Positions 59,513-63,982 of a stretch of DNA of 64,000 bases are shown here, piece after piece; within the stretch, counting starts at the first letter, position 1, and each line of letters starts with the position of its first letter. Source of the DNA: an uncultured archaeon. Lineage in GTDB: Archaea; Asgardarchaeota; Thorarchaeia; Thorarchaeales; Thorarchaeaceae. Location: contig CAZSWP010000005.1 of assembly GCA_964610875.1 (NCBI GenBank), forward strand, positions 1 through 64,000. The letters run 5' to 3'. The notes under the pieces are model-generated. The model made no database searches. It was not told the DNA's origin and worked only from the letters and a program-made list of their open reading frames with translations. A program made the position numbers and the translations under genes.

Positions 59513-62500
59513 CTAATAAACTGTAAATTGTTTCCGAATTTGTTCAACAGCCCGTTCAGGAAGCAGTTTCTCACGATGTTCTATACCAGCTTCAAGATAA
59601 TATGCAGTCACCATATCGACAGAAGGGGTTGTCCAAGGGAGAGATACTTCTATAGGCTTGTTATCTTCAAATGACAAAGCAGTTTCAAATTGCTTGACCA
59701 GATCTCGTCTTGATAAAACTCTAACAAGTAATACTATGTCTTCAATATTTGCAATCAAAGGTGTAATAACTGCTGAAATTTTTACAGGAGTAATTCTTGG
59801 TACTAATCCAGGTACTTCAGAACCGTCATTTCTTAGAAGAGCAACTCTAATTGAAAAGATAGGTTCATCAATAGACTTTATTTTGATGCGTACACTGTTC
59901 TTGGCAATCTTGCCATTTATGGCAATGGTTGCAGTCAAATGGGCGGTACTCAATTCAGCAGAAAGGGGTATTTTGAAATCAACTGGATAAATTGCAGAAT
60001 CATTTACTGGAATCACAGCATCTATTCGACTTACTAAATCATTTCCAGTGGGGGTTTCTAAATGCACATTGAGCTTGCCACGGATTCTTTCTTTAGTGAT
60101 GTTAGAAATATGTATGGCCGCATGCAATGATTCGTTTGGAGAAGCGAACTTAGGAACACCAGTAATTGCAATCCTAGCTTTTTCATCAATTGGTGTTTCT
60201 GTGAGGGAGATAGTCTTTGTTCTTATGTCGAGTGTGTTGCCTTGATATATTAGAGATCCCCTTAGAACAACAGATGTTTGGTTGATATTACTCGGAATTG
60301 GGATTTGAAGAGGGCCATATGCAACCGATAGATTTCTACTTGCTTTGATTTCCTGCTTAAGTGCAGTAATCTCCTGTCCGTCTGGAAAAACAAATGATAA
60401 GTTTAGATGAATTGGTCCACCATATTCAGTATTCCGTCGAATTCTCAACCATCCGGATATACTTCCTCCAAGATTTGCCTTTAGTGGTGCCTTAAGCGAA
60501 TCAATCGTCGCACGAACACCTACTCTTTCTATTGAGAACTTACTCGATTCAGCTGCTGTAATTAATTCTCCATTACTAACTAGTTCAGTACGAATCACTC
60601 CAGTCCTATCAGCTGTTGTTCTTACAGTGAGATCGGGAACAGTCCATTGAAACCCGATGGAACCTGAGAGAAGTGCAGCAAGTTTGAACGCTGAAATCTC
60701 AATTCTTTCATTTGAATCACTAACATATAACACCTTGACTAGACTATCTTCTTTAATTGAGGAGCCACGCGTTCTTATTCCAACTTCTCCACTTAGAATA
60801 CTCCCAGGAGATATACTAGTTCTTAGTGGAGCGCGTAATAGCAGCTGCGGGCCTTGACTCACATAACCGATGTAGAAGGGTCTGGATGTTCCTAGTGTTA
60901 CTTCTTTATTCTTGTCATCAATAATGTTTAATGTTATTAGACATCTTTCAACTCCCTGAGTGTCCGCTGAAGGTATAATCAATGACGGAAAACTGGTTTC
61001 ATCAAAAATTAAAGGAGAACTACCAGACACTTTTAATTCTGATTCAGAGGATGCAAGTAGCATTTCCGTTCCTGGAACATATACAGAAATTTTTGCATTG
61101 AGTCGAGTTTCACGAGGATAATTTGTATCAATTTCCCCATTGTACAAAACGGGAGATTTACCATCCACAAACTGTGTTGTTGTCCTGGGTCTGATTGTAG
61201 CCCGAATCCAGAAAGTATTGATTGTATTGCTGAGTTTGATTGATTTGCCGGCTATAATAATCTCAACAAAAATATTGTACGCAGATACATCCTTCTGGGT
61301 CTCAAAGGAAACAGACTTTACAAATATCTCACCAGGCTCCACCTCGGGTATTGATACAACATTGTGCTCAATCAAATGTCTACTAGAATCTTCAACTCGA
61401 TAGCTAACAGACAGATTTGTTGCAGAACGCTCTAGAGCATTCTTGATTGATATTAGAAATTGTGCTTCTTGACCAGCAAACACTCGCTCTGTCTCTGTTA
61501 CAATTTCCGGTTCTATTCCTTTCCACCAGCAAAGCCATGTTGGTAAATTTGGTGTGCCTTCCAACGGATCATAAAGCCAGTTTGTACAACACTCACGTGT
61601 AATGGATTCTAATTCCTTCATTAGAACTACCATATTCATATCCGATCGAGCATATACTTGTAATTGAAAATCTGCACCTGTTGTTCGAGGTTTAACAAAC
61701 TCGCTACCAAAAACTGACAAAAGCAACGGCTGTAGGAAAGCATTCTCAATGGCTTCTAGTTCTTCCAACTCATCACGAATGAAAAACAACATTGATGCAA
61801 CCGCATCTGCGAGAAATCGATTTCGAAGTTTCTTATTATAAGTGCCGTCATCAAGTAATTGCATATTGTATGAATTTCCAAATTCATCAGATTCAGTAGT
61901 ATCAGTTGGTCTGAAAGGACCCCAAAGACCAGCTTCAATAGCTGCTTCACGATTTGCAGCTAGAATCTTAGCCCCTACATCAATCACTCTCTCTCCATTT
62001 TCCAACATCTTTTTTGTTTTCAGTGCCAGTGCTTGAAGTAGTATAGCCAACCCAATCCGACGAGGGACAGAGAGTTGGGTGTCAAAGATTCTAAGTTCAA
62101 TCGTTCCATAATCAGTGAATGGGTAGATATCTACCATTCTCGGAGGGCTTCTATTCACATGTCTCGCAAATAGCTCTTTATCTGCAGTTTCAAGGAATGG
62201 TATAAGCTCGAATTCATTTGTTGGACCCATTTGTGTTGTATTTTTTGTCAAACGAATTGATCTCTTACACCTAGGAGCTCTGACATTCCCGTTTTCATCA
62301 ATGTACACTTGGTCAGTTGGTGCTTTATTTTCAAAGGGAGAATTTACTGAAAGCGCGATTAGATGAGGCATGAAGTTTCTGAACATATTATAAACTGCAA
62401 TACGGAGCCCATCACTGGTGTCAGGACCCAAAATATGATGATGCTCACCAAATGAAAGATTCTTCAAATAGTCTTGTGTTGGATTCAGACCAGTTGATAC

Positions 62501-62938
62501 TAGAATAACTTTGGATTCTCTAGGAATCGAATCATAAGAGATCGCTACAAGCGTTTGTACCCACCATGCAAGTTCTTCCAAGGTCGTACATGGAGGTGTC
62601 GCAATCTCAAGAATCCAAGTCAAACTTGTGACATTGGGATCATGTCCAATCAATGTATACTCGCGAACTTTCCCCCCTGGGTCTTCATAGCTTGCAACAA
62701 CGCGAGAACCTCTTTCACCTTCTTCCGTCTGAGATGAATGCTTGTATTTCGTCCTTACTGACTTTATATCGGTGTCACGTATCCTCTTATCCAGTAGACT
62801 TTTGGCACTGGAAACCAACCTATCAAATACTTCAAGTACGTCATCACCCCTAAGCCAAGTACCATCCTTTCTAATAACTTGGAGCTCTACTTCTATACCA
62901 TGTGGAAATGGCAACTCCAACTCATTTTGTTCAGCCAT
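59513..62938 (-). CDS. GCS2/YbdK-type carboxylate-amine ligase fused to tandem beta-sandwich (Ig-like) domains
   Basis: GIEVELQ, LEIATPPC, FGEHHHI, LIALSVNSPF, GTIELRIFD; aa ~475-1141 beta-strand rich. Confidence 0.8.
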   Translation of the reverse strand: MAEQNELELPFPHGIEVELQVIRKDGTWLRGDDVLEVFDRLVSSAKSLLDKRIRDTDIKSVRTKYKHSSQTEEGERGSRVVASYEDPGGKVREYTLIGHDPNVTSLTWILEIATPPCTTLEELAWWVQTLVAISYDSIPRESKVILVSTGLNPTQDYLKNLSFGEHHHILGPDTSDGLRIAVYNMFRNFMPHLIALSVNSPFENKAPTDQVYIDENGNVRAPRCKRSIRLTKNTTQMGPTNEFELIPFLETADKELFARHVNRSPPRMVDIYPFTDYGTIELRIFDTQLSVPRRIGLAILLQALALKTKKMLENGERVIDVGAKILAANREAAIEAGLWGPFRPTDTTESDEFGNSYNMQLLDDGTYNKKLRNRFLADAVASMLFFIRDELEELEAIENAFLQPLLLSVFGSEFVKPRTTGADFQLQVYARSDMNMVVLMKELESITRECCTNWLYDPLEGTPNLPTWLCWWKGIEPEIVTETERVFAGQEAQFLISIKNALERSATNLSVSYRVEDSSRHLIEHNVVSIPEVEPGEIFVKSVSFETQKDVSAYNIFVEIIIAGKSIKLSNTINTFWIRATIRPRTTTQFVDGKSPVLYNGEIDTNYPRETRLNAKISVYVPGTEMLLASSESELKVSGSSPLIFDETSFPSLIIPSADTQGVERCLITLNIIDDKNKEVTLGTSRPFYIGYVSQGPQLLLRAPLRTSISPGSILSGEVGIRTRGSSIKEDSLVKVLYVSDSNERIEISAFKLAALLSGSIGFQWTVPDLTVRTTADRTGVIRTELVSNGELITAAESSKFSIERVGVRATIDSLKAPLKANLGGSISGWLRIRRNTEYGGPIHLNLSFVFPDGQEITALKQEIKASRNLSVAYGPLQIPIPSNINQTSVVLRGSLIYQGNTLDIRTKTISLTETPIDEKARIAITGVPKFASPNESLHAAIHISNITKERIRGKLNVHLETPTGNDLVSRIDAVIPVNDSAIYPVDFKIPLSAELSTAHLTATIAINGKIAKNSVRIKIKSIDEPIFSIRVALLRNDGSEVPGLVPRITPVKISAVITPLIANIEDIVLLVRVLSRRDLVKQFETALSFEDNKPIEVSLPWTTPSVDMVTAYYLEAGIEHREKLLPERAVEQIRKQFTVY

Positions 62939-63617
62939 TCTTTCTCACCACACGGTCAATAATAACACGAAGTATTTCTGCTAGTAGTCCATTATTGAGT
63001 ATTGTTTCCTGAATAGTAATTTCATATGCAAACACATAGTCCAGTGATTTCAAAGACTCCAAAATGGAGAAGACAAGTGGACCACCACCATAGAGATATC
63101 GATCTTCCAAAACATGCATGCCTTTTGACTCTAAATCTTTTCGAATCGATTTCAGGAGATCACCAGTATCTCTGAAATATCGTTTTCCAAAAATAACCGT
63201 CTTTGCGAGTGTGAAAGGTCTGCCAAGAGGGAACACTTTGAGATTTAGAAACACCAATCCTGAAGATATTTTTTTAGCTCTGGTTTGAATGAGGTCCTGA
63301 ATCATACTACAGATATTTTTTGGTTCGGATGTGTCTTTCACTTCAATCAAGGTTGGTTGATTTTTGGGAGAAAGACTATCAACGAACCTACGAATCTCTT
63401 TGGATTCTATAATATTAGTAGTAGCACAAACCACCATATTACCAGACCCTTGATTGAGTAGTTCGTATCCATCCTTCTCGATACATTTCAAGGCATCATC
63501 AGTTGAGTCCACCAACTCATGTAATCGAGTTACAACTTCATCAACTTTATGTAATACTGCTTGGGTCTTATGCAATTCATTGAGAAAGGATTCTTGCGGC
63601 AAACCATAGACCCTCAT
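62931..63617 (-). CDS. Hypothetical, possibly degenerate N-formylglutamate amidohydrolase-like fold
   Basis: VIFG...LESKGMHVLEDRYLYGGG...AYEITI; 8-nt overlap with ligase gene. Confidence 0.55.
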   Translation of the reverse strand: MRVYGLPQESFLNELHKTQAVLHKVDEVVTRLHELVDSTDDALKCIEKDGYELLNQGSGNMVVCATTNIIESKEIRRFVDSLSPKNQPTLIEVKDTSEPKNICSMIQDLIQTRAKKISSGLVFLNLKVFPLGRPFTLAKTVIFGKRYFRDTGDLLKSIRKDLESKGMHVLEDRYLYGGGPLVFSILESLKSLDYVFAYEITIQETILNNGLLAEILRVIIDRVVRKNG

Positions 63618-63700
63618 TCAGATTATCATTATGAAGTCAGTCGAATGAAACGTTATTATCTTTGCTAGCGGTATAACGTGAAGAACTTGAAACGTGCGAG

Positions 63701-63982
63701 TCATTGTGATGAAACAAGCTTGAACACATGCTCAACCTTTTGGCTGATTTCTCTTAGACGGTACCAAACAGATTCGCGACCTGAACGTTCAGCAAGCCGG
63801 TCCACAATCATTGTGAAATCAAATTGAGCAAGATCCTTTAACAATACTAATGCTTTATCATCAGTGAAATGAGATTCATTTACTCGACTGTCATTGAATC
63901 TTCTGACTAGGGGAGCTAGAGCCTTTTCTGCAGAATCTACTTCAATCAACGCTTCCCTGTATTTTTTCTTAGGGTCTTGCAT
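63701..63982 (-). CDS. Small helical hypothetical protein
   Basis: 93 aa from MQDPKK after GGTGG SD. Confidence 0.65.
   Translation of the reverse strand: MQDPKKKYREALIEVDSAEKALAPLVRRFNDSRVNESHFTDDKALVLLKDLAQFDFTMIVDRLAERSGRESVWYRLREISQKVEHVFKLVSSQ

Follow-up and report, generated by a model that had tools for sequence, protein, structure and literature searches.

An Ig-armed YbdK/GCS2-fold ligase in a co-inherited accessory module of Asgard archaea

Carboxylate-amine ligases carry a GhExE signature as their defining mark, and their chemistry consists in phosphorylating a carboxylate, typically the gamma-carboxylate of glutamate, and then joining it to an amine (PMC2588565). The best-matching described group for the protein considered here is that of the YbdK/GCS2 ligases (PF04107, TIGR02050; structures 1tt4, 1r8g and 2gwc). 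PafA and Dop (4bjr, 9cku) belong to the same superfamily and provide the precedent of a GCS2-derived, hydrolase-paired ligase that links the gamma-carboxylate of glutamate to protein lysine (PMC2588565). Here, we analyzed LIG, a 1141-amino-acid (aa) protein encoded at 59513-62938 on the minus strand of a 64,000-nucleotide stretch of DNA from an uncultured archaeon of the Thorarchaeota. This stretch, hereafter the window, covers positions 1-64000 of contig C5. Together with p228, the gene directly upstream, LIG forms a cassette that is the Thorarchaeota version of an Asgard-specific module also comprising an amidohydrolase (AMH) and a Cdc48N-vWA protein (vWA).

The open reading frame (ORF) of LIG is divided into a ligase domain (aa 1-470) and a tail (aa 471-1141). 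The ligase domain (61529..62938, minus strand) was assigned to the YbdK/GCS2-type carboxylate-amine ligases from structure matches, TIGR02050 and invariant catalytic residues. In an alignment of 35 homologues from five Asgard families, all sequences kept G14-I-E16-V-E18, which is the GhExE signature, and E111 in LEIATPP; H166-168 in FGEHHH, NSPF at 199-202, and E281 and R283 in GTIELRIFD were invariant as well. The first-pass annotation had described the GCS2 motifs (ExE, LEIATP, FGEHHH, ELR) as intact in this domain, and all of them were indeed present and unchanged. In an alignment with PDB 1r8g they line up with the YbdK motifs, the GhExE, E, HxH, NSPF and ExR catalytic motifs being the same in both groups. 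Since these residues are invariant across five families, LIG is very probably enzymatically active.

The AlphaFold2 (AF2) model of LIG, built with the 35-sequence alignment as input, had a predicted local distance difference test score (pLDDT) of 85.4. VIA-align comparison gave the highest score with YbdK-type 1tt4 (Z 33.8, root-mean-square deviation 2.8, 331/354 residues aligned, 25% identity), followed by plant GCL 2gwc (Z 26.2), GshF (21.0), Dop (20.6) and PafA (19.6), while glutamine synthetases scored about 16. The model was decisive for the assignment: aa 1-470 adopt the YbdK/GCS2 variant of the glutamine-synthetase-type ligase fold, which is common to both over nearly the whole YbdK core. 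Unlike the YbdK/GCS2 enzymes, LIG has approximately 100 additional residues in the catalytic domain and a six-domain arm of 670 aa, scores below the thresholds of all curated YbdK and GshA models, belongs to an Asgard-only clade and is constantly accompanied by a hydrolase and a vWA protein.

TIGR02050 matched LIG at E 7e-15, yet with 55 bits against a cut-off of 176, and PF04107 reached 20.4 bits against 21 (24.7 bits when neighbouring in-frame matches were joined). The PDB sequence match was 1r8g (E 5e-4). None of the NCBIfam YbdK/GshA model cut-offs (176-437) was attained, LIG scoring 16-55 bits; the models named glutamate--cysteine ligase gave 41 bits at best against cut-offs of 332-437. 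Sequence searches retrieved relatives labelled as Thor-, Loki- (including Lokiarchaeum ossiferum), Hel-, Hod- and Sigyn-archaeal proteins at 33-45% identity, and aa 1-470 shared 36-44% identity with ligases from further Asgard families. Beyond Asgard, the matches dropped to E ~1e-3 and comprised ordinary GCS2 proteins. Judging from these searches, the LIG clade is essentially confined to Asgard archaea.

Databases label LIG homologues 'glutamate--cysteine ligase', in line with a plain gamma-glutamylcysteine synthetase that would serve a low-molecular-weight thiol. This assignment agrees with LIG being the sole PF04107-like gene of the source genome, and a GCS2-type GshA is in use in haloarchaea (PMC7278568). 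However, we regard it as most unlikely in view of the sub-threshold bit scores, the remoteness of the next-best non-Asgard relatives, the 670-aa arm and the clean loss of LIG together with AMH and vWA from several near-complete Thorarchaeota genomes. The first-pass annotation had named a plain GshA with non-conserved neighbours as one outcome that would speak against its own proposal; LIG proved instead to lie far under the equivalog cut-offs, to be accessory and to be co-inherited with a hydrolase and a vWA protein. The current database name is probably misleading.

The tail (aa 471-1141 plus stop; 59513..61528, minus strand) was all-beta in the AF2 model, with pLDDT mostly 80-90, and was predicted to form six beta-sandwich domains of Ig/MG/CARDB-like type, bordered at about aa 472-577, 578-695, 696-800, 806-916, 917-1024 and 1025-1141. 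The Ig-like array fused to the ligase, which had been proposed from the sequence, was thus borne out by AF2 and Foldseek. Domains D3/D4/D5 and D1/D5 were mutually homologous (hhalign 84-94%), and single domains matched CARDB, MG, arrestin-like and glycosidase Ig-like domains with VIA-align Z of 11-13. In Foldseek, the tail matched the MG arrays of A2ML1, CD109, C3, C5 and TEP1 (E 1e-19 to 1e-20) over ~780 columns of consecutive beta-sandwich domains, but the TM-score of only 0.1-0.25 indicates another domain arrangement. The thioester, CUB and bait region of these alpha-2-macroglobulin, complement C3-C5 and CD109 proteins have no counterpart in LIG, which is cytoplasmic. Because the thioester and CUB parts are missing, the likeness is one of generic Ig-like sandwiches and does not imply kinship with alpha-2-macroglobulins. 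The N-terminus of LIG enters ligase strand 1 directly, which leaves no signal peptide, as had been claimed.

The first-pass annotation looked for a hydrolase in the gene next to LIG and missed the real one, AMH, which lies ~11 kb downstream and is paired with the vWA gene. AMH (46834-48333, plus strand) encodes an Amidohydro_2 metal hydrolase of ~500 aa (PF04909, E 9e-12); it gave no match to PDB sequences. Its invariant residues D31, H33, H35, K184, H186, H252 and D307 make up a full amidohydrolase metal site. The Cdc48N-vWA gene follows at 48388-49698 (plus strand; VWA_2, E 1e-10). The residues of its metal-ion-dependent adhesion site (MIDAS), D200, S202, S204, T326 and D356, are intact and invariant, and relatives of the protein carry a CDC48_N domain. 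The start codon of the vWA gene is uncertain: the first canonical one is the GTG at 48517, but the profile already matches from 48412 onwards, as would be expected of a non-canonical start. On the 3' side of LIG, the AMH-vWA pair is ~10 kb away. The distance between LIG and the AMH orthologue was 6-9 kb in five further Thorarchaeota genomes that carry the ligase, and AMH adjoined LIG in all 28 non-Thorarchaeota loci examined. Searches of five Thorarchaeota genomes without the ligase detected no orthologue of either AMH or vWA.

A second, larger type of gene that partly resembles AMH was also observed. An 876-aa protein encoded upstream of the cassette, beyond the window (L021:10532-13162, i.e., C5:66531-69161, plus strand), combines an Amidohydro_2-like half, weakly matched by PF04909 (E 0.006), with a vWA-like half. 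Frames of 868-893 aa that match the AMH query adjoin the AMH gene in genomes G103, G128 and G131, and one such frame persists in the ligase-less genome G005, ~7 kb from the p145 gene described below.

The distribution of the three proteins was surveyed in 301 Asgard genomes from 30 families. LIG matched 177 genomes (E <= 1e-3), the AMH profile 171 and the vWA profile 172 (both at E <= 1e-40). All three were positive in the same 10 of the 30 families (f1, f2, f6, f7, f9, f19, f22, f24, f27 and f28), f1 being the Thorarchaeota family of the window, with near-identical counts per family. They were not found in the other families (for example, 0/28 genomes in f5, 0/19 in f12 and 0/11 in f14), except for three weak LIG-query matches in f16 (E ~1e-4). 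Co-occurrence was consistent at the family, genus and within-genus levels, and copy numbers of LIG, AMH and vWA increased together in f7 and f19. LIG, AMH and vWA constitute an Asgard-specific module that is mostly vertically inherited and dispensable. The module is accessory because it has been cleanly lost in several genera, and this counts against housekeeping thiol synthesis.

Two Thorarchaeota genomes were discordant. G242 contains a TAA within its LIG gene (C1:1477734-1481144), and G055 a divergent 708-aa LIG frame of 33% identity (C27:82034-84106); neither an AMH nor a vWA orthologue was found in either genome. These may be ligase genes decaying after loss of the module.

Gene order, read in 41 loci, followed a small number of regular patterns. 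In the Loki-type families f9, f24 and f28 (19 loci), a ~600-aa protein with a p228-like domain, LIG (~560 aa) and AMH (~515 aa) follow one another on one strand. The order in f22 is AMH, LIG (~985 aa) and Cdc48N-vWA, whereas in f7 and f19 a p228-like gene precedes LIG (1180 aa), behind which lies a convergent vWA and AMH pair. The same order was found in f6, where the 214-aa gene at the p228 position was not recognised as p228-like. A second, paralogous LIG of 1230-1400 aa, seen outside Thorarchaeota, is accompanied by adjacent vWA and Amidohydro_2 genes of its own. The number of Ig-like domains in LIG varies by lineage from 0 to 7. Conservation of the neighbours across Asgard, which the first-pass annotation had put forward as a check, is therefore evident from the regular LIG, AMH, vWA and p228-type contexts in these loci.

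Additional proteins accompany the ligase in single lineages. In f2 and f6, the gene that immediately precedes the p228-position gene and the ligase (L029:4462-6879 and L030:11560-13944) codes for a protein of ~800 aa, whose C-terminal part is an EAP30/Vps36 (ESCRT-II-like) domain (PF04157, E 3e-19). Two genes upstream of the f2 ligase, a 256-aa protein with a B-box/zinc-finger-like N-terminus (L029:3521-4291) matches the Ig-like tail of the ligase.

The second gene of the Thorarchaeota cassette, p228 (62931-63617, minus strand), encodes 228 aa and overlaps LIG by 8 nt. Direct reading of the overlap, ATGGCTGA, confirmed the earlier claim and placed the LIG start codon inside the last p228 codons, with GGTGA ~10 nt upstream of that start. 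This arrangement indicates that p228 is translationally coupled to LIG. The AF2 model of p228 (pLDDT 87.8) comprises a 40-residue N-terminal helix (aa 8-48) and an alpha/beta domain. Structural comparison of this model supported the previous guess of an N-formylglutamate amidohydrolase (FGase)-like fold: VIA-align gave Z 11.9 with FGase 2q7s (166 aligned residues, 17% identity), 11.3 with 2odf and 9.9 with PghP 3a9l, although the top rank of 2q7s is within 1 Z of pyroglutamyl peptidase (11.8), TET aminopeptidase and MTA nucleosidase. The best Foldseek matches were 2odf and 3a9l, the poly-gamma-glutamate hydrolase 5onj was also among the structural matches, and a language-model search led to a cluster with PF05013 (score 0.89). 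PF05013 weakly matched one of 29 p228 members (E 0.015). No meaningful sequence match to p228 was found in PDB (phmmer and profile) or Pfam, and the window copy was without a PF05013 match.

Among 29 p228 homologues, only D172, G177 and G178 were invariant, and G144, R146, G179 and T201 nearly so. The motif reported earlier (D172, YGGG at 176-179 and YEIT) is therefore real; it has the order D-x4-[FY]-GGG ... E-x-T, which we take to be that of the FGase family. The lack of zinc ligands had also been noted correctly, as no His, Glu or Cys is conserved in these sequences and the His/Glu/His zinc site has no conserved equivalent. In its predicted alpha/beta fold, p228 resembles the FGase family (PF05013; 2q7s, 2odf) and phage PghP (3a9l) but differs from them in having no conserved His/Glu zinc ligands and an extra long N-terminal helix. 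On the evidence of its alignment and predicted structure, p228 is best read as an accessory pseudo-enzyme with an FGase-like fold. The eraser role that the first-pass annotation assigned to it is unlikely, since conserved catalytic residues are lacking and three genera with LIG yielded no p228.

An exhaustive HMMER search for p228 yielded 33 clusters only, all of ~220 aa and 21-36% identity. In the same genomes, identity was ~25% for p228, 47-56% (~53%) for LIG, 48-65% for p145, 67-82% for DUF92 and 80-94% for full-length Opp ATPases, so that p228 appears to evolve fast. A sample of the window's GTDB family (f1) comprised 80 other genomes; 61 contained p228, which stood directly beside LIG wherever one assembled contig carried both; in the LIG-less genera g3, g4 and g7 of this sample it was not found. 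In the Loki-type families, the protein of ~600 aa encoded immediately upstream of LIG has a homologue of the p228 domain in its last 170 aa (hhalign 93%, E 3e-7), likewise devoid of metal ligands. The relationship was detected by profile-profile comparison only, as the full-length hidden Markov model of the ~600-aa protein gave no match to p228.

The borders of the cassette were apparent from its flanks. Upstream lies the helical p145, at 63701..64000 (minus strand) in the window. The '93-aa helical gene' of the first-pass annotation is this gene, given with the wrong length: the window end cuts an ORF of 145 aa (C5:63701-64138). Upstream of p145 are two oligopeptide-type ABC ATPase genes, OppD/F (L021:8208-10301 = C5:64207-66300), and downstream of LIG is a gene for a DUF92 membrane protein (58305..59222, minus strand; PF01940, E 7e-66). 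The order p145-p228-LIG-DUF92 recurred in 25 Thorarchaeota loci, with OppD-OppF before p145 wherever the fetched flank extended so far. Five ligase-less Thorarchaeota genomes (95-99% complete) retained OppD-OppF-p145-DUF92, with ~240 bp in place of p228-LIG and p145 of 58-64% identity. Persistence of the frame in these genomes shows the cassette to consist of p228 and LIG only; p145, DUF92 and the Opp ATPases are mere neighbours. The Opp ATPases were rejected as functional partners on the same grounds.

These observations bear on the triad originally proposed, in which LIG would write a protein glutamylation or tag, p228 would read or erase it, and the small helical protein would be the tag or partner. 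PafA and Dop do have the same fold as LIG (Z 19.6-20.6), p228 resembles in its fold enzymes acting on glutamyl amides as hydrolases, and the two genes are coupled. However, for p145 the proposal is refuted: the gene remains in genomes without LIG, and its C-terminal residue varies among Q, N, S, K, H, E, A, L, V, I and D, unlike that of Pup, so that both a Pup-like tag and a conserved partner are ruled out. Given also the missing catalytic residues of p228, the failure to find it in the LIG-bearing genera mentioned above and the location of an intact hydrolase partner elsewhere, we consider the triad very improbable.

A conflict or defence module, as often found for vWA-containing NTP-dependent systems, was considered as well. 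Such a role would fit the patchy losses, the expansion of paralogues in f7 and f19, the fast evolution of p228 relative to LIG and the cassette-like presence and absence. However, PADLOC matched none of six module proteins, no nuclease or other effector domain was conserved nearby, and the genes are single-copy, fixed in syntenic position and mostly vertically inherited across whole families. The PADLOC result and the syntenic, mostly vertical pattern argue weakly against defence, which we regard as quite unlikely.

The explanation we favour, and on balance hold to be probable as a whole, is a cassette within an Asgard module that consists of a ligase, a docking arm, a dead subunit, a hydrolase and a vWA protein. 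By analogy with its superfamily, LIG would activate a carboxylate, usually the gamma-carboxylate of glutamate, in an ATP-dependent manner and couple it to an amine. The six-domain Ig-like arm may serve as a docking scaffold. p228, a putatively catalytically dead FGase/PghP-fold subunit produced in step with LIG, may bind or present a glutamyl or carboxylate ligand or regulate LIG. AMH would hydrolyse or prime the amide, and the MIDAS of the vWA protein could dock an acidic group. Since all four folds handle carboxylates or glutamyl amides, a cycle of writing (LIG), binding (p228, vWA) and hydrolysis (AMH) is the most economical interpretation.

The nature of the acceptor is the less certain part of this explanation. 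A protein or peptide acceptor is plausible, at somewhat below an even chance, and is suggested by the variability of the Ig-like arms, by the partnership with Cdc48N-vWA and by neighbours confined to single lineages, among them the 800-aa EAP30/Vps36-domain protein. A small amine is a possible acceptor, which we rate as less likely. In a fully small-molecule version, LIG would form a gamma-glutamyl-amine or a similar amide and AMH would hydrolyse or convert it, the arm and vWA only organising the complex. Consistent with this, the structures most similar to LIG belong to ligases of small molecules (YbdK type, Z 33.8; plant GCL, Z 26.2), and the 41 loci show no conserved small ORF next to LIG that resembles a tag. 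Nevertheless, such metabolism does not readily explain a large, lineage-variable and always-present protein-interaction apparatus (0-7 Ig-like domains, Cdc48N-vWA, and EAP30-domain and coiled-coil neighbours), and no conserved transporter or additional biosynthetic enzyme accompanies the module; we therefore consider this version rather doubtful.

Several observations weigh against the favoured explanation. The genomes are related, and co-occurrence counts are consequently not independent events. Physical linkage is loose in Thorarchaeota, where unrelated genes occupy the 6-11 kb that separate LIG from AMH and vWA, and in some Loki-type genomes vWA is >50 kb from LIG. Three genera of the f1 sample that carry LIG (g2, g14 and g16) yielded no p228, which excludes an essential role for it. 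Among sequencing runs, only DNA runs of one microbial-mat study were listed for the sequence, and no RNA run. Finally, characterised Amidohydro_2 enzymes act mostly on small molecules, a point that also favours a small-molecule acceptor.

In its most specific form, the favoured explanation would be a ubiquitin-independent, pupylation-like cycle: proteins bound by the arm would receive an isopeptide or a gamma-glutamyl amide from LIG, AMH would erase or prime it, the vWA MIDAS would read the acidic mark, and dead FGase-fold subunits such as p228 would present or gate the glutamyl substrate. We put this forward only tentatively. PafA and Dop are structurally farther from LIG than the YbdK type is (Z 19.6-20.6 versus 33.8), and no small protein with a conserved terminal Gln/Glu, as in the tag of pupylation, was found near LIG. 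The hydrolase partner of LIG is an unrelated TIM-barrel amidohydrolase, whereas that of pupylation is a paralogue of the ligase. Moreover, no proteasome linkage was seen for the LIG module, unlike for pupylation.

No description of the LIG-AMH-vWA module was found in the literature searched, which did not cover the amidoligase gene-context catalogue of Iyer et al. 2009; the preprint of Liu et al. 2020 does not mention it. While the ligase fold is known, the Asgard-only clade with Ig-like arms, a hydrolase, a vWA protein and a probable dead subunit of glutamyl-amidase fold is apparently undescribed. If proteins are modified, the module would represent a third independent ligase-based protein tagging system after ubiquitin and Pup, and it would occur in the closest archaeal relatives of eukaryotes. 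A small-molecule substrate would instead hint at an unknown Asgard metabolite. The cultured Lokiarchaeum carries a LIG homologue, which in Lokiarchaeum ossiferum measures 587 aa.

Some minor features of the flanking genes were also recorded. The operon of the ~600-aa protein, LIG and AMH is preceded on the same strand by a gene for a cis-prenyltransferase (241-249 aa) in 11 of the 18 Loki-type loci; its assignment to the undecaprenyl diphosphate synthase family was checked in L037 only (L037:11501-12238; PF01255, E 4e-62). The DUF92 family, present downstream of the Thorarchaeota cassette, includes the plant phytyl-phosphate kinase VTE6. The occurrence of these two isoprenoid-carrier-related flanks may be coincidental. 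The Opp genes are split in the source genome: the AMH-vWA pair, the LIG cassette and approximately ten further genes, spanning ~18 kb, separate the permease genes in the window (OppC-like, 44632-46203; 40949-42520; 42712-43776) from those of the OppD/F ATPases. In other Thorarchaeota (L022, L024), a divergent gene pair encoding proteins of 354 and ~520-540 aa lies ~1 kb upstream of OppD. p145 gave no Pfam or PADLOC match; in every member of the Thorarchaeota examined, with the ligase or lacking it, its fixed place was between OppF and DUF92. Its internal loop, G-x-G-M-T-P-L-x-G-G-Y-A-x-x-D-P followed by DGRVNESHF (L021:7702-8139), is strongly conserved.

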